A DNA stretch of 63,951 nt, counting the filler, from Collodictyon triciliatum (lineage: Eukaryota), in assembly GCA_043381765.1 (NCBI GenBank). It is 7 parts of 7 records of this genome, joined end to end, with 100 filler letters (N's around TTAATTAATTAA, not from the genome) between each part and the next. Parts side by side here need not be neighbours in the genome. Positions count along the whole stretch, not along the records: positions 18,632 to 27,843 come from JBHJMP010003111.1; 6 more parts are not named here. One strand, 5' to 3'. Below the pieces are notes generated by a model. The model was not told the origin of the DNA, made no database searches, and was given only the letters and a program-made list of their open reading frames with translations. Both the position numbers and the translations under genes were made by a program. Below, piece after piece: positions 9,549 to 31,100 of this stretch. The first letter of the stretch is position 1. Each line of letters begins with the position of its first letter.

Positions 9549-12500
9549 ATGGAGGAGCTTCCACCACAAATCACAGCACTCAGTAATCTGCAGACTATTT
9601 GGATAAAAAGGCATTCGATATTCACAAAAAGTATACAAAGGGCACCACGCGGCATCACAGATATTCCATGCTGGAACAACCTAGATCATAAAGATTGGAA
9701 AAGCATTCGTGCTTTAGAGCTCTATGAAGTTCCGGTATGTCGCACCATAAATTACCAGAAAAATGATAATAGTATATAAGGATTTTTTTTTAAAACTATT
9801 ACACATGAAACAGGATAGTGAGATGATAATAGACGGATGGGCTCCAAATTCGATTCAAATCAGCTTCTGATCACTTAATTTTTATGGCATGGGAATTTCT
9901 AAATTGCCGGCTAATATCATACGCTTGACTAATTTGTCATATCTCAGCATTAGTAATAATAAAGTAATACATTTTTTTTATTACCTCATAATTTAAAAGC
10001 GACAGAAAACTAATAAAATGAAAATAAATCAGTTCACTGAATGTCCTCAACAACTGTCTCACATGAGTTCCCTCGAGTTTCTAGATTTATCATTCAACAA
10101 GGTTTTCATTTATGTATATAAAATGCGAGATTGTTCAAAACTATCTTCAGTCACCCAGCAATACTATACATTTCTTTAATATATGACTTATTCAAATCCA
10201 AAAAAACCATTTCATCTTGACAATTGAAACAGACAATAGTTTTCTCTGCATGGTTTGGTGCTATGTCTTCGATAAAAAGGCTGAATATATCGCACTGCCA
10301 GGTAAACCAATTTTATAAACTTACCCACCAAAAATTGATTAAATACATAAATTTACTTTCCAAGATAATAAAAAAAAATAATGTAAATCACTATTACAGC
10401 TTACTGGAATCCAAGATTCTATCGCTTGTCTGACAAACCTGGAGAAATTAAATTTCTCTCACAATAAGGCAATATATTTTATTCTGGCCAAATACACGCA
10501 ACAAAGCTTCTGATTATATATTCATATTGATCGTTACTCTAAATTTCCGATATTTTGATTTCTTTAGATACAAGAAATACCTACACTCCTCGCAACCATA
10601 CGAAAACTAAGAACTGGGCTTCATTTTTAGAAAAACCCTATTGAGAATGTTCCATCAAATGTTCTACAGAGAGGCTCTGCGGATGTGTATGACTACCTTG
10701 CATCACTTGGTGATGTTATTCTAAATAAAGAAGCCAGGATTATTTTACTTGGAGAAGGAGAAGCAGGAAAAACGACACTACGGATGTCACTGAAGCGTAT
10801 GAAACCGTGGGTTTTTCAAAGTTTTCCCTCCACAGTAGATCCTAACCGAGGAAGGACGGATGGAATTGAGATAGAGAAAGATGGCATCCTTCTGGATTAT
10901 ACAGAGCCACAGATCGACGCAAAAATATGGGACTTTGGGGGCCAAGACATCTTTCACGCTACTCATCCATTTTTCTTGGCTTGTAACGCATTAATATTGA
11001 TAGTCTACAAAGTGACAGATAAACCTCATCTGACGAGTGTGTCTGAATGGCTAAGCATGATTTCAAGTTTCTGCTCTGGAGCTCATGTCATCATTGTGGG
11101 CACGCACTTAGATAAATTCACAAACCCTATAGAAAGGGATGAGACGAAGGGAAGCTGTGAACAAGCTTACCAGAAATTGAAAGCTTCAGAGTACTACAAC
11201 GGGAAAATAGAATTTTGCGGTCACTTTATGACGAGCAGCAACAATGGTCAAGGTATATTCGAACTGAAAGAACATATTCATTATGAGTTATTGAAGTTAC
11301 TGAATGTGGGGCAATACATACCCAGAATATATAATCAGATGAAGGATTTATTAATTGGTTGGCGAAGAGCCCACCTGTCCGTTTCGATGGAAGATGTGAT
11401 CCATCAAGGCAAAAGTTTCGGGTTAGGTGAGGAAAAAACTAAATCGGCACTTCGATTCCTTACCGACCTGGGCATTATTGTCTGGAATCAAAAAACGTGA
11501 AAAAATAAATGGTACGGTTTTCCTCGACCCAGATATATTAATATCGTGTTTTCGTGAAGTCTTCAACCTAGAAGCAGTCAAAAACACACGAACTCTTAAA
11601 AGAAATCAAATAACCGATATCAAAGGTGTATACGAGGAAAGAGAGCTCGAACAAGCTATGAAGAACATAATCAAATTAAAATCTGGTGCAATATTACCAT
11701 CCTTAGCACCAGATTTTACAGAGAAAATAATAAAGCTCTTTTGTGACTACCAACTCGCTTATTACATCAGCAATACCAAAGTCATTTCCCCCATACTTGT
11801 CGATAATGAAGAACCTAAGGGCGTTTGGGTTACCAATTTATCTGAAGTTAAGGAAGCAGTTCATTACAGTATTCAATACCAACATGAAATACCCAAAAAT
11901 AGCATCAGTCAAATAATCAGTGATATTATAGAGAAGTTGAACACATTCTCTAAAATATTACCTAGTGATTTATTCCTGAGCAAGCAGCGGATGATATTCC
12001 CTTTTTCGTTGTCCAGCAATTCAGAACCCAGGATTGTGATGAAAGAAAAAAACGATTTCGCCGCGTTCATACACTTCGTACCCCTGGTTGCACACTAGGT
12101 ATGATTACTTGATTTTCCCTTTTATTTAATTCAAAAGGTATGTTTACTTGACTTATAGATACCATCGTTAGTTTTTCTTTTATAATCTCTTTTTTTCATT
12201 TATAATAACAATACCTGAAAAATCAACAGGAGGCGCAACATAAATCACAGTATATCAAATTACCCAGCTCACAAAAAATAATAATTATTGTAAAGACCTT
12301 GAAAAAAAAAGAGTTGTACTCTCAAAGCAACTAAATACATCGTGGATGAAGTTGTAAAACCCAATATTGATATAAGAATCCAAGAAGAGGGTATCATTTG
12401 CCCAAAGTGTATCAAAAATTTTCAAAAAAGGAGGAAAGTTTATGACTGTAAATCCTTGCTCAGACCAGATTTTACAAATATAATTGAATCTGGAGTCTTG

Positions 12501-15500
12501 GTTTCTGAAGGTGAAGAAACACGCTCAGCTTTATACGAATATCCTAGCCTTCCTGGTGAATGGAGTCCATTCCATCAAAGTGTCAAATGTAGTAACACCG
12601 AAGCACACGAAATCAAACAGGCTGAATACATGGAGTTGAAGCTTCCCACAAATACTTTGCGCTTGCATTATGCCGGAACAAAACCTGTGGAAGGAAAAAA
12701 ATTAGATGAAGGTACAAAAAAGATTCACATTTTCCTCTAATCTACATTCAAGGACATGAAGCAAGTTCGAGAGAGTTTCTGCAGATACGTACAACCGCAG
12801 TAAAGATATAATAAGAATCATAATCATTAGTAACATGATTGGTTTCATAAATTTGTCTATATAGTTTTATCATTTTTTTCAAATAATAATACAAAAACTG
12901 AGAATAAAGCTGCGTATCTTCATAGCATAATTAATGCTGCTCGTCAACGGGGTATTGAAGTTCGATTCATCGATTTAAGATGGGGCATTTCACCAGAACA
13001 ATCGGAAAAAGGAAAGGTATTCACTTTTACCAATTAATATATGTTTTGGGGATATTCAGAGTACGAGCGTATCTAGATATCAGTACATTATGAAATAACA
13101 CTCACAGGCTCTAAACAGACGATGCATGAATGCCTTGGGGGTGTCGAAAAATCAAAATATTTCGTGTGCTTCCTGGGCTCTAGGTTTGGATAATTGATAA
13201 AAATGGGCTGCATTACACAAATGTTAGATTTCCCCTTGTATTAAGTTCTAAGGTTTTTTTGAAAATTGCAAACTTCTGCTCCCAACTAATTATGCAGGTA
13301 CGGGTGGATTCCAAGAAGAGACGACTCAACAGAATGGAATGGGAGAATAAACGATGAATTTCCTTGGGTCAATTACTATCCAACTGCTAGCGCTACAGAG
13401 CTGGAGGTATAAAATGGTGATCAGAAATAGAGAGCTTATCATTTTTCAAGGCTCATGTTGGCAATTTTATTGTAACATAAAAATAGATTCGAGCAGCAGG
13501 TTTCATCGAAAACCCTTATGCGTATCGTGTTTTCTTCTACGAAAAGACAAAGGTAAGAAAAAACAAAGGTAAAAAAAGAAAAAAAGAAAAAAGAAAAAAG
13601 AAAAAAGAAAAAGAAAGAAAGAATGCCGTTGAAGTTATCTATCAGTAGTATCATACTTATTAAATGTATTTGATTATCATGAATTTTGGAAAATTTAAAT
13701 TTGGGCTGATGCGTAGGAAAAAAATGAGGACCGAGTAGATGGAGAAAAACAACAAGGACTAATATCTGATATAAAAAGACAGTATCCTGTTTTTGAATTT
13801 AAAAAAGAAAACATCAGTGAACTCGTCGATATGGCAAAACGTCATGTGCTGAACGCGTTAAACGAAGACTTTAAGGTATGTTAGAATTAATTCCATGATA
13901 TAATGAATTGTATGTGTGTGTTGTTGCTACAATCTAAGCCATATATATATATAAATTCCGAGTAAATTGTGCATAATATACCATAGGAACAAGATTTCTG
14001 TGTCATAAATATGGAATACAAGGTTTGATGCACTTTACGTAAAATATAATTCAAAATTCCCTCCGAAGGCTTCATAATCTTTATAATATTTATAAAATGA
14101 CAGATGGACGATGTAAAATTACAGCCTAATGTCGTAATCAGTCGCTTACAATCAAGTTGTCAAGAATATTGCAAGCAGCTATCAGAAGAACAAAAAAGAA
14201 TCATAAACGATGGAGTGAAATCGACATCATCGTTATGTATGGCTAAACAATCAAGTTCTATGATCTTTTGTTTCTCAGCCGAACCAATTATAAAGTTAAA
14301 TATTTCATAATTTCTTAAAGGTAATCTTACTCTACTGCGCTTGGTTTTGTCAGAATTGATTAGCTTCGGTGAGTTTGATAAATTGGACGTCTTTTTACGG
14401 GACATTGTGTTGAAGGCGAATTCAAAAGATTACAACGAACTATTAGAATTTATAATGGGCCAATATGAAAGGCATTATGGTATATCTGTTAATATATTTA
14501 ATAGCTATAATTAAATATATATATTAATATTATAAAATTAGTCCCTTTATCTTCAACTTGTTTCAGGTACAGAGCTCGTGCGATATACAATCACACATTT
14601 TTTGATTACTGATATCGGCATTCGCATGGTCATCCACCAAAAGATGCAGTTTGAGAATCGTCAAGATGAATCGGATATATTCAAATGGTAATCACCTAGG
14701 ACAAGGCATCTACAATATAATTTTGATCTAACGCTTTGTACATTATCTAGCGAAGCTTTCTTCTTTTTACTGGAACATTTTGGGTTTATTCGCTCGGATG
14801 ATAATAGGTTCCTTCTAATACACATGCCTTTAGCTTCAAACTATTTCTTTCAAGGGTGATATTTACACGCATAAGTAATTTATATTTTCTTTCTTTACCT
14901 TTTAGGTATAAGTTTGTAGAAAACAAAATCCTGCGCCCTTTTCTCACGAAGAAATATCTTCAAAGTGAGCCACAAAAACATGGAGCATGGCAAGAGTACA
15001 TCAAATTGCTAGTTTGCGAAATAGAAGAATTACCAAGCCTGAAAGAAACGGGGTCTAAGCTTGTAAACGAGTTGCTTCGAAGCTACCAGAAGCTATTCCA
15101 AAACAGCGGGAATCATTATCATCGTGCGCATGAATCATTTATTGCCCACTTGGGCAAGCAAAAAATTGTTGAGGTATTAAAATTGACTGGAAATGGGTTG
15201 ATGGATGTGATTCAAAAGGAAGCCCGCATGTACAGATTTGAGGACAACAAGATGTTATGGTACAAAGTCCTGTTGGTGCGTTTACGCATTATTGAAAAGA
15301 TAAACCACCCAGCATTTAAAAATATTCGTATTTGTTATGAAAATTTATTGAAGGAATCATGGGCTAGACTAACCGCGTGCACTAAGACTGAATCAATATA
15401 CAGAGCTCCAAACATGCTGCTGCTCATTTAACAGTTTATCTGGAGACGGAGAAACATATGTGGTCACTACTGGAGGAGTGCCTATTAAAATGGGAGAAAG

Positions 15501-18531: not shown

Positions 18532-18631
18532 NNNNNNNNNNNNNNNNNNNNNNNNNNNNNNNNNNNNNNNNNNNNTTAATTAATTAANNNNNNNNNNNNN
18601 NNNNNNNNNNNNNNNNNNNNNNNNNNNNNNN

Positions 18632-19339: not shown

Positions 19340-22300
19340 CTAAAGAGGGATTGGTGCACTCTCGGTAAATATTGTCAATTCTTTCTCTTTCTTCAATCCT
19401 TCCCATTTGTTCCTTGCGCAAATGAATAGTGAATGACTCACCACAGCCTTAAATAGAGGCTCTGCTAGTCTCTCTATTTTTCCAATGAAGGAAATGATTA
19501 ACGCCGGGCCGGCCTTGTACAAAAAAACTATTGCAATCAACCCATTGGACATAGCAACAAGGGCAACGAGTAAATATTCGGCAAAAATACTCAGATCTGA
19601 ATAGCGAAACAAAAGACTTGTCATCAACGTAAAATATAGGACAGATGTTGACCACATATGAGATTTCTTTAGGACTTTTGACATAAATGGCTTGAAATAA
19701 ATTGACGACGTAAAACTCAAAGTCAAAATCCATGAACCGAAGTAAATTTGCGAAGATGGAGAGAACAATATACCAACAATAACAACAAGCAGCTTTTGCA
19801 TCATCGTTACCATTTCCCAATAGTAACATCTTTCGTTGTACCCATCGACCAAAAATCGAAGCAAATTGTATGTATTAGACGTAGGATTTAGTAGTGACGA
19901 CCTTTTGTGAAACATATACGCAGCGAGAAACAGCGGGCCACCGAAGCAATACATAATCATGTAAGCCATGCATACATTTTTCCAAATCAAATAAGTGGCG
20001 TCAGTGCACATTATTGACATGTCAACCTTCAAATAACTTTCATTACCCAACTGTACACAAACAAATATATTTGATATTGATGATGCAATTGTTGGATGAA
20101 CAAATATGAGCATCACCAGCATCGAGAATATAAATTCTTGGTTCATATTGTAAACTGTTACATGTTTCCTATCAATTTGATTGGTTTTTAATCTCCACAG
20201 AGTCTTTACAGTGACCTCTATCGAAACGACGATAGTCAAAGCTAGTGGTGTAGCCATTGCAAACAAGACTTTATCGTATATATTCATGTCGAACTGACAT
20301 TCTGTTGTATAATTTTCTAACGATAGAGAAAACGATAAAAGGCTTGGAATGTTCATTACAGAGATAATAGTCGAGCTCCAGTCAACATCAAAGTTGGCTA
20401 GATAGGATAGAATCTGAAAATGTGTCGAAAGTGTCTTCAAAATTTGAATACTGCCAGTTTTTGGTTGCCTTGACTGCTCTATCATGTAAAAAGCAAATGC
20501 AAGAGGAAATATGATACTCAGAATGACCAAAAATACATTCACGCCTCTTGATGCGCATTTTATGCAGAAACTACCACCTGCTTTGCCGTAGCCTTCATCA
20601 CAGAAACTACACAAAATCCCGGTGTATCCATCGGCACAAGTATTGTTCTCTCCTCCCACGCAAGCATTTTCATTTAGACACTTGTATGCAATATAATCTT
20701 CAGTAGAACTTGTAGCTTGCCAATATCCGGTAGAAATAGATGGCTTTTCTGTACCATCACATACAAACCCTTTCGGACATTCTTTGCACAAAGCAGACTT
20801 TGGATCTAAATATGTAGAGCGGAAACACAAACAATCTTTTATAGTGTCCGATCCTATTTTACCTCCATTCCACCCGCTCGCGCATACAGTGCAGCTTGTG
20901 CCAAATCCTACACTGAAGCTTCCAGACGGGCATGGTGTGCATGTCTTCAGGGTAGAATTATAGGAGCCACCAGCACAAACTTCCCAGATTTTAATTGTGT
21001 TATCATGATCTCCAGAAATGATTTTAGAACCATCAAGAGTAACAGCAACACTGTAAACAACACTAGTATGACCAGTCAATTTTCGAATCAACGCTCCATC
21101 AGAAAGATTCCATATCTTAATTGTATAATCAGCACCTCCAGAAATGATTTTAGAACCATCAGGAGTAACAGCAACACTGTTAACACCATCAATATGACCA
21201 ATGAATGAGCGAATCATAGCTCCATCAGAAAGATTCCAAAGTATAATTGTTTCATCTTTACTTCCAGAAATGATTTTAGAACCATCAAGAGTAACAGCAA
21301 CATTGGTAACACTACTACTATGACCAGTCAATGTGCGAATCATATTTCCATCAGAAAGATTCCAAAGTATAATTGTCCAATCCCAACTTCCGGAAACAAT
21401 TTTGGTGCTGTCAGGAGTAACAGCAACACTGCAAACAACACTAGTGTGACCAATCAATTTGCGAATCAAAGCTCCATCAGAAAGATTCCAAAGTATGATT
21501 GTTCTATCATAGCTCCCTGAAACGATTTTTGAACCATCAGGAGTAACAGCAACACTGTAAACAACACTAGTATGACCAGTCAATTTTCGAATCATATTTC
21601 CATCAGAAAGATTCCAAAGTATAATTGTCCAATCCCAACTTCCGGAAACAATTTTGGTGCTGTCAGGAGTAACAGCAACACTGTAAACATAACTAGTATG
21701 ACCATTCAGTGTGCGAATCAAAGTTCCATCAGAAAGATTCCAAATTATAATTGTCCGATCCCAACTTCCTGAAACGATTTTTGAACCATCAGGAGTAACA
21801 GCAACACTGTAAACAACACTACTATGACCAGTCAATGTGCGAATCATATTTCCATCAGAAAGATTCCAAGTTATAATTGTCCGATCCCAACTTCCTGAAA
21901 CGATTTTTAAACCGTCAGGAGTAACAGCAACACTGCGCACCAATTCAGTATGACCAGTGAGTGTGCGAATCAAAGCTCCATCAGAAATATTCCACATCTT
22001 GATTGAGTAATCAACATAATAATAATGATCTCCATCTGCAGAAATAATTTTGGTGCCGTCAGGAGTAACAGCAACACTGAATACATTTCCGGGAGTTGCT
22101 AAAATCTGAATCAAAGCTCCATCAGGAAGATTCCAAATTATGATTGTTCTCTCATAACCTCCAGAAATAATTTTTGAGCCATCAGGAGTAACAGCAACAC
22201 TGAAAACATAACTATTATGCCCAATCAATGTGCGAATCATATTTCCATCATAAATGTTCCAAATTTTGATTGTAAAATCATCACTTCCAGAAATAATTTT

Positions 22301-22924
22301 TGAACCATCAGGAGTGACAGCAACACTGTAAACATAACTATTATGCCCAATCAATGTGCGAATCAACGCTCCATCAGAGAGTCTCCATATCTTAATTGTA
22401 CAATCAGCACTTCCAGAGATGATTATTGAATCATCAGGGGTAATAGCAACACTTTCAATGGCATCAGTGTGTCCATTCATTGTGTTAACCAAAGCCCCAT
22501 TAGAAAGATTCCACACTTTGATTGTACTGTCATCACTTCCAGAAATGATTTTTGAGCCATCAGGAGTAATAGCAACGCTCCTTATAGTATCACTGTGACT
22601 AGTCAACACTCGGTCCAAAGCTCCATTAGAAAGATTCCAAACTTTGATTGTACTGTCATCACTTCCAGAAATGATTTTTGAACTATCAGGGGTAATAGCA
22701 ACACTGTGCACAACTCCAGGACTCCCTATGCTACGAATCAGAAAATCGTCTTGCCCTTCAACTGGGCAAACATGGCAGAGGGGCACCATTCCTGAAAAAA
22801 AAAGCGGTTACTATATTTCATTGAAGTTTTAAGTTTAATACAGGTGATAATTCCTACTTTCTGCAATATGATAAAACAAACCTAAAAGTAAAATGGCCGC
22901 AACAAGTTCTAAATTCCACTCCAT
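19340..22924 (-). CDS. Receptor-like protein: signal peptide, 14 WD40 repeats, Cys-rich (GCC2/GCC3-like) linker, multi-pass TM domain
   Basis: 1149-aa ORF with 14 mostly 42-aa GH...SVAVTPDG...W repeats, CxxCPxG modules (CADGYTGILCSFC) and about 8-9 hydrophobic segments. A short upstream exon (22924-22858, MEWNLELVAAILLLGLFYHIAE) splices in frame through one GT-AG intron. Confidence 0.88.
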
Positions 22925-25900
22925 ACTGATAGTAAAAGTATTGCTACCAAAAATTGAAGTCATCATTTTAATAGCGCCAATTTTTTATATCAATTTTAGT
23001 TTTTTATATCAATTTTTTTGCATTGTTCACAACTCTAATTTATTAACAAAAACTTCTTTTTTTTATCAATTCATAAAGAAATATCTCAATCAAAATTTAG
23101 TATTTAATACTATCGTGAAAAATTCAGATGAGGCTCTTGCAGGATATATTTCATGATTCACATTATATTTTATGGTATTCAGTGTAACCAAATTTATTTC
23201 TTGAAGGAAAAATACCGAAAATATTAAATATAATTTCAACAATTGATCATATAATTGGCACCACAGTTACAAATTTATTATCATGTAATTAAATTAAATT
23301 TCAAATACCAAAACACTTTAAACACGTGATCAAAATGAAAATAATATCTTGAGAGAAGGTATCTCGGATTATTTGATAGTATTTTTGATAGAAAATAAGA
23401 TTATTTATTTAACAAAGTGAAGTATACTCAACAGATCATTTATAAATTTTCAAGTGTCAAGGCTCCCCAAAAATACATATCAAAATTAAATTCGTCGGAA
23501 TGATAAAGGTATTTGTAAAAAATGGAACTAATTTACAACAATTATTTGAATATTTTTATCTGTAATTATTAAAAATATATTCAAGGTGCATGTCCATAGT
23601 TTGAGGTTTTGGGTAGTCAACCAATAATGCCAAATATCAGAATTCAAAAAAAGTAAAATTATTTACACATCGTTATTTGATACCTTCGATTAGTCAATCA
23701 AAGTCAATGTAATATTTTCTAAAAAAAATTAGAGAACAGTTTTTTACGTAGATTGTAATGATTCATTTGAATGATTTTTGTCAATTCTAGGGATAAACGA
23801 GCATCTTTTTCTCCCTCGAATGATAGAGCAGATATCATACGATAATTAACAATAAATAACGATGAGGGTTTGTATCAAAATACAAATTTGCACGAATAGA
23901 ATGAAATATTGATGTTAATCAATATAAGGTATTGAAAGTAACGATATTAGCGAAAATTTTAAAAATAATTTATAAGCGTATAGATGAAGAAAGTCAATCA
24001 AATGAGCACCGAAAATCAAAAATTCTTTTAAAAAAGTGCTATGTAGTTCCATCATTGACAAATCGTGCGTAATAAAATCTACATCATTTTCTTGAAATAT
24101 TTTTACTGCGTAATCAGCTATATTCTTGAAAATAAAAAATTATGCTGTGATTAATAATTTGTAGATTATCTCCGTGTAAATTTCTGAAATTATGGAAAAT
24201 AAATGAAGATTGTTTGTGAAATTAATATTCATCATCAAAATAAAATATGTCCGGTTAAGATGTATTGAAATGGTTATTAGTTATATGTTAAATTAATGAA
24301 TCAAAGTATGATTACGCTCAAATCCTTCAATTTTTGAATAATAATCAGATTGGATATTACAAGCCAGGATAACTTGTGATTGTTTTGTCATTAGCCTCGG
24401 GGGGAAATTTGGTATCGGATTGGATCCAGGTCAGGGCCTCTGGAAGTTGCAGCTCTTGAGATTTGTAATTATTCTCAACCCACTCTGGTGCATTGTGATG
24501 AGCCATGAATCCAGCTTCCATATCCAGCGGGCCAGCATCCTTATCCGACACGCTTCACTACTTTTATCCAAGGCACAAAGAATGTCGCCGAACTATAAAA
24601 ATTTTTTAAAAAAACTTTCCTTCCCTTGAATCAAATAAAGGAAAAAAAGCTTGTGAGTGTTTTTCTGAGAAAGTTACTCGTTTCTTTGAATTGCAACCAT
24701 ACCATGTGTATGGAAGAGGGTATCGATGCTAATTTTATGGTTCATTGCTAGTCAAATAAAAGTTTCTTTTAGGACATTCTAAATATTTTAACTGATATGT
24801 AAGACAAATAGTTTCTCTTTGTTGAAAATTAATATACACTTATGTTATTTCCTCACTCTTGATGAAATTTTCATTTCATCTAGACAACAACTAGATACTC
24901 ACATTGAAATTAACCTATTATGAAATATTTATTACTAAAGAAAAAGTGCGATTTAGCTTTTTTCTTCTCCTTTTTACTGCATTGAATGGCTCAGATGGAG
25001 AAAGGATCAAGTGAATCATCTAACTACGACTATAGACAGCGTCTGCATGCATCGAATAAATGCTTGAAATTTAGAATGAGTTCAATTAGTTAAAATATAA
25101 ATATATTTCATTATTTAACAAACTCTTTGCACTTAATTTTGAACATTATGAGTGCCAGTTCAATATAGAAATATATCTTGATGATATAATTTAAATAGTC
25201 TTCCTAGAATAATCAAATTTTAATGTAAGAGCGTTGATTATCATCTTTGTAGGATTAAATCATGAACTGCGACATTGTAATAAATTTGTTTGAATTTACC
25301 TGATTATGTTGAGTATTTTCGTACCTTGTGATAGTGTTATAATCATAAAATCAAAATCAGCCGCTTCATTGGTAAATTCATCAATCTAAAAGAGTTTGTC
25401 AGATATTAGTTCAATCATTCCATTTTACTCAAAAACATGCAGCTAGTCCATACATTTCATCTAGTTTAACCTGTACAATTTCAACACTAGTACGTGTGGG
25501 AATGTTCGTGGTGATTTAGTTAAATGATGGCCCCTCCAATCGATAGTGTGATATCAAATGAAACATGTTATATTGCCAGTGCTACGGACGCATTTTTATC
25601 AAATTAGAATAAACTTTTAATACTTGGATGATAATTTTCGTATATACTCTGTAGCTATTGTACAGAATTATCAATATATAAGGTATTCGTATTTTAATAA
25701 ATATATGTGAATTATTGTGATAAAAGCATGAAATGAAATTTAAATTCTATGTTGGAATATTGTGGTAGCTTTAGAATAAATCATTAGCTTTCAACATATG
25801 AATGATGAAAACAATGAATAAAACGAAAAAGACAAGAGGATAGTGGCAGGGTTAAAGGAATTGAGAAGGGAGCATAAAACGATTAAAAAAATCCTGATAA

Positions 25901-28013: not shown

Positions 28014-28194
28014 GGAGTCTGTGAGCGCCTGCCTTTTTCTTTCTATTCCCCTCTATACTTTTCGCTGCGCTTCCTTGTGCCCTCCCGATAATATCCTTTA
28101 TCTTCTGCTTTCTCAAAAAAAATCCTTTGTTGTTGGGCGTAAGAAACAGGAGGAAGAAGTGGAGGAAAGGAGGATGCTTTGTCCATGTCCTTAC

Positions 28195-31100
28195 CTCGCA
28201 TACTGGTGGTTCCTCCTAAAAGAATGATGTTGCCAGCAATATCGCGGCGATTGTCGATAGCACACTTCCCAATTGCTTGTTTGATGAGGCTTGGAACTCC
28301 TTCATACTCAAGCCCGCCGAGCGATGGTCTGAAAAGCAGCTCAGGAGCACGGAAACAGATATCACCAACCATGTATTTGCGACCTTCATTCAGTAAAAGC
28401 TCGGCTGGCTCACGCTCTCCGGTGCGGTGCTTGATAACTTCGTCTTCATACGAGAGCGCGTTGTAACAGTACCTATGATTTGGTTAGACATGTTAAAGTC
28501 CATCTATTTTCTACGATAAGAAAACCTTTCTTGCTACGAGTAGAAACACGCCTGTGTAAGAATTTTATATGAAAGGCATCGAAGGAGGAAGACTTTTTAT
28601 CTTTGACATTTTAGAAACCTTTCTTTAAAAGGTCGGAGATATTGCTCGATTCGATGGCTGGGCAGAGTGACATTTAACTCCTTGTTCATCAATTGGTAAA
28701 GATACTGGTTAACATGATATCCTCCCAAAGGCGTCGTTGTTGATGCATCTTCGATAATAGTATTCTCATATACAGCAGTAACCTAGAAAAATAAATAAAT
28801 TGGGATTTAAGGAGGGCACTCAATTTCAGAATTATTAACTATTTATTACTAGAATAAAGGGAAATAGATTGGAAATGGATGTCTTTTAGGGGAGGAAAGA
28901 TGACAAGGCATACCGCTGCATCTCGCCAAATAGAAATATGTGAATGTGTTTACGTATTTAACTTAGATGGGGCAGTCTTATACATAAAAGTGATTGTGAT
29001 ATCTCAATAATTCACCGTCGTTGTTGTCCCTATGTCAACTACAAGTCCAGTTGTTTCACCAAACACATACAAAGGAAGATAAGCAGGCTTGTGAACAATA
29101 ACAGAGGGAACTTCAAAGGTTTCGAACAAGATTTGAAGGCAGATAGAAAGGTCTTCGCGTTTGAAGTTTGGTGGCTCGGTCAACAGGACCTGTTTGGGTC
29201 AAAACTTTAATATTTATCTTTTCTAATGAAACCATATTATTATTATTTTTTTTTTGCATCAAATACACACATCAGTTTTGTTTAAGGAAAACATTACTAC
29301 GGGGAGAGGAGGGAAAATAGAACGACTTATGAAACAAAAAAAAACGTAAATTTTAGCTTACATGAATTTATCATATACGCACCTTATGTTCTCTTGGGTC
29401 AACACGGAGAACATTCTTAAAGCAATGATCGTACAGGCTGATGAAAGATTCCCAATCGATTTCACGATTATGACTAAAGATGTGGCTTAGATTGCACTCC
29501 TCCGTCACAAACTGAATGATTACAAAGTTTTATTGTCGTTGCAATGGATGTATCAACGAAAGGAATAAATGCAGTCATGTGATTGTATGTAGTAAATTGC
29601 GACTCATAATTTTTGAATGAAAATAATTCGTCATGGCAAAGAGTTACATGGCTATAGGCATCGTATCCGAAACTCATGGTGTTGTCTTTTCCGGACTTGT
29701 AAAATGCAGAAGGGAAAACATATGCGGGAATTTCATCCTCCGCTAAACCAACCCGAAGATATGCAGCCCCGTTGTCGAATACGATTGGAGATTTCGAGTT
29801 GTGTCTGAGATTATAAAAATGGATATAAAGATAGAAATTGATATTCATGATGCCAGGCAACACACTGTATTTTCAGAAACCGAAAATAAAAAAAAAAAAC
29901 GAGATTAATTATCTTATCACAAAGGAATTTTTAGGGAAAATACGGGAGAGTTTCGTAGAGAGGGAGATAGCTGCAGCTGAGCCTTTTACTATCAACATCC
30001 AGTGCAAGCAATTCGGCGGGTTCATCATCAGTCTCAATTTTACGAGCTGTCTGCTACCAATATTTAAGCAATAAGGGCAAAATGTTTTAAAAGTAATGGG
30101 ATTAAATTAGGTAATTTTTGACGGAAAATTTTGTTAATTTATTTTTTAAGAAAAAAAAAAGAGGGAAGAACTTGACATACAATTTCCATATCCACTTCAT
30201 CCTGACCCTCTTGGACTGGAGAGGCTTCACCCGGCTTGACGATAACTAATGTCAGAGATAATAGAATGTTTATAAATGCTAAAAAATGACTCTATGAGCC
30301 AGAAGGAAACAGCATGTTATGTATCATAGAGTGTTTTTTTTTTTTTTTTTTGCCATAGCATTATAATAGAATGAGGGTAGGGACGTTAAATTGGTAAATG
30401 AAGATGACAAAAGGGATATGTTGCTGGCTTTACTTGATCGGAGACTTTCTTGTCTCTTTATCAAGGCTTGAAGGGCAGCTTTTGATGTCTCAAATATATC
30501 ATTTTTCCATAGCTTCGCTTGACTCTCATCGGAAGCTTGGAAAGTGAGTTTCTGCGCAATAGAGGAGGAAATATGTTATTTGAAATAATTCTCTTCGACC
30601 AGTATTTACACACATCCTCAAAATGGATGCACACGTCAAGCAAGGTATAAATAAATAACAATAATAGACTAAGTAGTAGTAGTAGTAGTAGTAGTAGTAN
30701 NNNNNNNNNNNNNNNNNNNNNNNNNNNNNNNNNNNNNNNNNNNNNNNNNNNNNNNNNNNNNNNNNNNNNNNNNNNNNNNNNNNNNNNNNNNNNNNNNNNN
30801 NNNNNNNNNNNNNNNNNNNNNNNNNNNNNNNNNNNNNNNNNNNNNNNNNNNNNNNNNNNNNNNNNNNNNNNNNNNNNNNNNNNNNNNNNNNNNNNNNNNN
30901 NNNNNNNNNNNNNNNNNNNNNNNNNNNNNNNNNNNNNNNNNNNNNNNNNNNNNNNNNNNNNNNNNNNNNNNNNNNNNNNNNNNNNNNNNNNNNNNNNNNN
31001 NNNNNNNNNNNNNNNNNNNNNNNNNNNNNNNNNNNNNNNNNNNNNNNNNNNNNNNNNNNNNNNNNNNNNNNNNNNNNNNNNNNNNNNNNNNNNNNNNNNN

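Follow-up and report, generated by a model that had tools for sequence, protein, structure and literature searches.

A mosaic WD40 array with probable positive selection at four top-face codons on a predicted nine-helix membrane protein, and its expanded gene family, in Collodictyon triciliatum

The window analysed here is a stretch of 63,951 nucleotides of Collodictyon triciliatum DNA (GCA_043381765.1) in which N-runs with the TTAATTAATTAA spacer, for example 18533-18631, join unrelated contigs; microsatellites lie at many contig ends. The gene under study occupies contig C3111 (JBHJMP010003111.1, 9212 bp), and because separate contigs are joined in the window, the remoter genes are not its true neighbours. 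One of these, at 9900-13500 on the plus strand of a different contig, is a multi-exon gene with LRR-like exons, a Roc domain and then a weak COR-A match, with a break in frame near 11497 (a frameshift or an assembly error). Another is an actin-related gene on the minus strand, with exons at 28043-28483 and 29474-29872, the first of which matches Pfam Actin. The WD40 gene comprises the following features.

19340..22807, minus strand: open reading frame of 1155 codons
22882..22924, minus strand: exon 1, first half of the predicted signal peptide (14 codons plus one base, ATG at 22924)
22792..22881, minus strand: predicted phase-1 intron of 90 nt (donor GTTTGT, polypyrimidine tract, CAG acceptor)
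22754..22791, minus strand: second half of the predicted signal peptide, with V-E-G at its end and Gln next
21845..22741, minus strand: WD40 repeats 1-7, a putative first propeller (best solved relative 2YMU)
20981..21844, minus strand: WD40 repeats 8-14, a putative second propeller (mosaic)
20831..20968, minus strand: Ephrin_rec_like cysteine-rich repeat (PF07699, from Pfam), the stalk
20555..20683, minus strand: DUF7630 (PF24633) inside a conserved cysteine-rich neck, matched by 37 of 37 paralogues
19520..20548, minus strand: nine-helix membrane domain, predicted N-out/C-in (AlphaFold2 and topology)
19340..19519, minus strand: cytosolic extension of helix 9, short basic tail and stop codon, with no catalytic domain

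The predicted spliced product is 1164 amino acids long. The start codon at 22924 and the GT..AG intron at 22881-22792 proposed in the original prediction are present in the DNA as described, and would give a hydrophobic leader of 27 residues after splicing. Two further in-frame ATGs lie upstream, at 22966 and 22963, and a start there could lengthen the protein by 13-14 residues. Signal-peptide cleavage favours small residues at (-3,-1), and cleavage after V-E-G would place the start of the mature protein at 22753. The cysteine-rich stalk and multi-pass membrane part anticipated behind the array are recovered as PF07699, PF24633 and nine predicted helices, and an alignment profile matches the EphA2 ectodomain CRD. 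The spliced protein contains no Walker A motif, and a Pfam scan of its C-terminal half, the remainder being WD40 repeats, found neither a NACHT nor a kinase domain.

We found 14 WD40 repeats, recognised as WD40 by Pfam, between 20981 and 22741, in agreement with the predicted 14 repeats of mostly 126 bp. Twelve have 42 codons, or 126 bp, and the other two have 41 and 48; TRF reports a period of 126 with 13.4 copies. The repeats had been described as highly similar at the DNA level, which holds for the central ones (74-94% pairwise identity among repeats 7-13), while the range across all 12 full repeats is wider (63-94%). Ten of the 42 positions are invariant, and entropy is highest at positions 10, 12, 28 and 30 (2.4-2.9 bits, 6-8 different residues each), which adjoin the conserved V11 and D29 and carry the variable residues as originally listed. 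The array contains two cysteines and is a mosaic, with repeats 9 and 11 identical over 84 bp and repeats 10 and 14 over their first 42 bp. Repeats 8-10 and 10-12 share about 86 of 100 residues by hand count, which is borderline against the threshold used for HNWD-type internal conservation (85% identity over 100 aa; PMC4986451). In repeat 6, the b-c turn of the top face contains an insertion rich in Tyr (22013-22036). A single-sequence AlphaFold2 model of the WD40 part failed (pLDDT 35) and was not used, so the probable propeller fold rests on sequence likeness to 2YMU.

The gene is one of many. Searches with the C-terminal module returned at least 99 matches in the same genome (98 scored of 313 candidates), so that the receptor family suggested from a single gene comprises about 100 or more loci. 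We examined 60 loci from the module search and 20 chosen from a WD40 search. WD40 repeats, stalk and membrane domain lie in one open reading frame at 39 of the 60, the other 21 being edge-cut or frame-broken. Twenty-two of these 39 have about 7 repeats, 8 have about 14, 8 have about 21 and 1 has 25, and these multiples of seven suggest one to three propellers per protein. Stalks contain between 3 and 103 CxxCxxG motifs, that of the window gene being among the shortest, and membrane domains are 48-96% identical across the family. Close paralogues in the 7-repeat group have membrane domains that are 87-90% identical, with identity at the four variable sites mostly 0-17%, and 603 different four-residue combinations occur at these sites among 793 repeats. 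Insertions also concentrate in two top-face loops (49 of 54), those at the b-c turn being rich in Gly, Tyr, Ser and Trp, and the DHSW tetrad is kept in 716 of 834 repeats. Among 15 genes with homogenised repeats, 50 of 139 repeats have their nearest neighbour within their own gene; best repeat matches outside the window gene reach 79-93%, and recent duplication explains part of this neighbour pattern.

The genome holds several related arrangements. Loci L135 and L163 (contig C949) carry about 60 or more WD40 repeats of the same type behind a signal-peptide-like segment and lack the cysteine stalk, and L122 (C2488) carries at least 41; in one repeat of these long arrays the b-c turn is extended by 11 inserted residues, rich in Tyr. 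In the family member L130 (C4786) the stalk is followed by FG-GAP repeats, and the membrane module was not seen in the stretch examined. At least 41 NACHT matches over the cut-off occur in the genome, and those examined are large NACHT-WD40 proteins (for example L147-L162), some with pentapeptide or Sel1 repeats, which form a separate NLR-like family with diverged WD40 repeats. An origin of the heads from these NACHT-WD40 genes is not supported, as their repeats match the family profile only partially. Two closely similar cytosolic-type HSP90 genes (L243-L246, on C907 and C1088) were also noted, with named database matches about 66-77% identical.

We then considered on which side of the membrane the array would lie. 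A predicted split signal peptide, consisting of a short ATG exon, a phase-1 intron and a hydrophobic leader, recurs at 49 of the 62 WD40 loci whose 5' end is intact, a further 9 being cut, compared to 3.7% of shuffles of the upstream DNA; the signal peptide postulated for the window gene would thus be a family trait. This canonical-intron search supersedes a looser exon search that allowed any donor (27 of 47, control 14%). Exon 1 has 14 codons in about half of the 49 paralogues, and many of these exons are clearly homologous. The family's intron donors are mostly GT..GT, four with the window gene's hexamer GTTTGT, and intron lengths run from 40 to 168; the triplet that most often precedes the predicted cleavage site is V-E-G (13 of 49). 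Exon 1 of the window gene lacks the basic n-region common in the paralogues.

The repeats themselves point the same way. The WD dipeptide is mostly W-N in the family, and 322 of 619 motif matches form an N-x-S/T sequon there, compared to 3 of 70 in 16 NACHT-WD40 proteins encoded by this AT-rich genome (p=1e-16); a profile-based count gave 375 of 793 family repeats versus 15 of 554 in outside WD40 proteins. L135 (7 of 41) was discarded as an intracellular control for this comparison, since it has the signal-peptide-like segment upstream. Under an N-out topology, summed Lys and Arg are 18.1 inside versus 9.5 outside in 34 family sequences and 17.0 versus 8.1 in 68 further homologues, and the conserved loop cysteines fall on the outside. 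Between the WD40 array and the disulfide-type stalk there is no membrane helix, so the two share a side, and heads typical of extracellular proteins (TIG, FG-GAP, RCC1, PQQ, LRR, DOMON and Sushi) occur on homologues of the module. These data suggest that the WD40 array lies outside the cytosol, at the plasma membrane or in an internal lumen, and the charge bias, loop cysteines and sequons place the N-terminus where the extracellular topology first proposed would have it.

When the last 506 residues were modelled with AlphaFold2 from an alignment, the confident result (pLDDT 92.3, pTM 0.86) contained nine long helices, which points to a membrane domain of nine helices rather than seven. Foldseek found no match to this model at E<=0.001, and a VIA fold search none at Z>=8; its best match, Hrd1 (Z 7.9, rmsd 4.8, 188 aligned), we read as generic helical likeness. 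Comparison with the GPCR (7TM) fold likewise sets nine modelled helices beside fold searches lacking a clear match, and the RSF and GPRch3 GPCRs were dropped as candidates, the accessible portion of their description giving them no ectodomain (PMC12716839). In sequence databases, a profile of 37 family sequences matched 17,091 clusters at E<=0.001. Thecamonas and sea cucumber are represented among the proteins with this module, and its atlas neighbours are eukaryotic. Among 157 proteins examined, none contained WD40 repeats of the family type in two or more copies, while RCC1, FG-GAP and PQQ propeller heads occur. WD40-plus-stalk fusions were absent from 92 WD40 protein matches and 79 metagenome loci, and the atlas gave no usable match, in searches dominated by WD40 words that leave absence elsewhere unproven. 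The window gene belongs to an uncharacterised DUF7630/nine-helix receptor superfamily, with a WD40 head not found elsewhere in these searches.

A distant link between the module and fungal Pkd2/FLC proteins (PF06011) is suggestive. PF06011 matched 5 of 72 scanned homologues, 2 of them at or over the cut-off, and neither the window protein nor any of the 37 family sequences; in a search of the Collodictyon genome nothing matched, controls being equally silent. Any Pkd2-like channel step would thus rest on a transitive link, because no family sequence itself matches PF06011.

We next asked whether the four hypervariable positions evolve under selection. In Podospora, selection acts on codons 7, 9, 25 and 27 of the repeat, which belong to two top-face elements, the d-a loop and the b-c turn (PMC1805685). 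Positions 10, 12, 28 and 30 have the same HET-E spacing (2-16-2) around a conserved V and D and lie in the same loops, in line with the likeness to HNWD top-face positions noted at the outset; the mapping was made by spacing and loop description, not by direct alignment. Using a fixed-sites codon model on 13 ungapped repeats of the window gene, we obtained omega of 5.6 (GY, LR 32.5) and 3.2 (MG, LR 21.9) at the four codons, compared to 0.33-0.47 at the remaining codons and 0.84 at four other variable control sites. This test is partly circular for the window gene, because the four sites were first noticed there. Since the repeats are mosaic, we simulated neutral sites under gene conversion; among 84 simulations in three regimes, the top LR was 7.0 and the top omega 2.66, versus an observed LR of 27.4, and 2 of 84 exceeded the 1% threshold. 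The excess of nonsynonymous change expected at the variable sites is therefore present (dN/dS 3.2-5.6) and lies beyond neutral simulation. Tree-free pairwise counts gave dN/dS of 2.2-3.1 in the three lower-divergence bins, and half-repeats with separate trees gave omega >1 in both halves, more weakly in the second (p=0.01-0.04). Synonymous change is not raised at the four codons (pS 0.31 versus 0.32 elsewhere), which argues against targeted mutation.

Across 58 genes tested, omega exceeded 1 in 25, significantly in 14, and many diverged arrays were significantly below 1. Among the 15 homogenised genes (mean repeat identity >=0.74, a cut picked after seeing the data), 14 had omega >1 and 12 were significant. 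These results support positive selection at the four top-face codons, confined to members with homogenised repeats. Variable top-face hotspots as such are general in highly repetitive WD40 proteins (PMC5587647).

We consider it probable (at roughly 0.6) that these genes form an expanded family encoding recognition receptors of the cell surface or the phagosome lumen, whose top face binds variable foreign ligands. The signal peptide would export one to three WD40 propellers from the cytosol, with their far side N-glycosylated; a disulfide-rich rod of variable length would space them from the membrane, and the nine-helix domain would anchor them there. The propeller top face would be the binding site, the stalk setting its distance. 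Repeats would be duplicated and exchanged within and between genes, homogenising the framework, while selection would favour new residues at the four codons of the top face, along with insertions rich in Gly, Tyr and Trp in the same two loops. The likely ligands would be variable foreign molecules, that is prey, parasite or virus surfaces. Because no cytosolic enzyme domain is present, a signal would have to pass through the nine-helix domain, most plausibly as a Pkd2-like ion (Ca2+) flux or via a bound partner.

A bolder form of this reading, which we hold to be doubtful though worth stating, is an antibody-like repertoire in a unicellular eukaryote: about a hundred or more receptor-channels would bear outward-facing, blade-reshuffled propellers with paratope-like selected sites, Tyr/Gly-rich loop insertions among them, and binding or pull would directly gate a Pkd2-like calcium pore. 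If true, NLR-style diversification would have moved to the cell surface and become coupled to an ion channel, and the family would offer the first functional handle on a membrane-protein superfamily of 17,000 clusters.

Alternatively, the proteins could be targets, a variable surface coat or decoy that changes so that a parasite, virus or predator can no longer bind it. Large families with long rods and broken copies recall protist surface-antigen families, and this family is large, with cysteine-rich rods of great length and numerous copies that are truncated or broken in frame; positive selection would suit either side of an arms race. However, change is limited to the binding face and two of its loops, with other variable surface sites near neutral, the insertions in those loops are rich in Gly, Tyr, Ser and Trp, and an elaborate nine-helix domain is conserved, all of which make a coat unlikely in our view. 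Somewhat less likely again is recognition of self, kin or mating type, in which the propellers would bind polymorphic partners of the same species, as in HET-E/HET-C or in Tetrahymena MTA/MTB, which is described as a self/non-self system (PMC7786109, PMC3608545). The selected sites do match those of an allorecognition receptor, but about 100 or more loci would seem to far exceed what known allorecognition systems need.

It is much less probable that the top face is simply drifting, with relaxed constraint and gene conversion producing an artefactual dN/dS, although top-face residues vary in most WD40 proteins (PMC5587647), mosaic repeats can inflate tree-based tests and omega falls below 1 in diverged members. 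The neutral conversion simulations fall well short of the observed LR, and the tree-free counts and both half-repeats give ratios above 1. Least probable of all is a cytosolic array, with exon 1 unused or the first hydrophobic stretch an uncleaved anchor: the cytosol is the usual place of canonical WD40 domains, the DHSW tetrad is retained in repeats with almost no cysteines and the splice is predicted from DNA, but the split signal peptide, sequon gain, charge bias and lack of a membrane helix before the stalk all favour the outside.

Diversifying WD40 sensors have been described from cytosolic fungal NLRs, and canonical WD40 domains are rarely reported outside cells. If the recognition-receptor reading is correct, the family would show the four-codon diversification recipe reused on the outside of a single-celled eukaryote, and would allow the recognition of prey, parasites or kin by protists to be studied in a concrete system. 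Its propellers would also form a naturally occurring set of binders, and its members would give access to a nine-helix superfamily that is very large and uncharacterised and for which we found no solved structure.

In literature searches covering main texts outside subscription journals we found no precedent for WD40 repeats, stalk and nine helices in one protein, and several known systems share parts of this architecture. The plant receptor CRINKLY4/ACR4, as far as its description was accessible, also places an extracellular seven-bladed propeller (termed "WD40" by its authors) on a cysteine-rich domain; its disulfide-bonded blades come closest to BLIP-II and UVR8, and it has a cytoplasmic kinase (10.1101/2020.08.10.245050). 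In contrast, the repeats of the Collodictyon family are canonical GH-WD, nearly cysteine-free, homogenised and selected, and the protein lacks a kinase. Neck and membrane module are shared with uncharacterised proteins in which variable heads precede Ephrin_rec_like, DUF7630 and nine helices, but those heads are TIG, filamin-like, FG-GAP, RCC1, PQQ, LRR, DOMON or beta-helix domains, not WD40.

Fission yeast Pkd2 has a predicted signal peptide, an extracellular domain and nine helices (10.1101/2022.08.11.503631) and passes calcium on stretch (PMC9727806). In the accessible descriptions, fungal Pkd2/FLC proteins share with the family a signal peptide, an extracellular N-terminal domain, nine predicted N-out/C-in helices and a cytosolic C-tail; their N-terminal domain is Ig/ML-like, whereas the Collodictyon proteins carry WD40 repeats, a stalk and DUF7630 and form a large variable family. 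Highly repetitive WD40 proteins (2YMU; PMC5587647) resemble the family in their near-identical repeats with diverse hotspots, but the 92 protein matches and 79 metagenome loci had no stalk or membrane module.

The closest parallel to the array lies in the NWD/HNWD NLRs of Podospora anserina, HET-E and HET-D, which share its 42-codon repeats and homogenised framework (PMC1805685, PMC4986451), as well as four selected codons in two pairs, repeat numbers up to 21 and, probably, repeat exchange, as far as the portions consulted describe them. Unlike these NLRs, the Collodictyon protein has no NACHT or effector domain, and its repeats carry sequons in place of the WD dipeptide. Its array is N-terminal, behind a predicted signal peptide and on a stalk and nine predicted helices, while that of HNWD proteins is C-terminal and cytosolic. 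The WD40 array thus resembles the HNWD sensor domain, but the protein that bears it is not an NLR.
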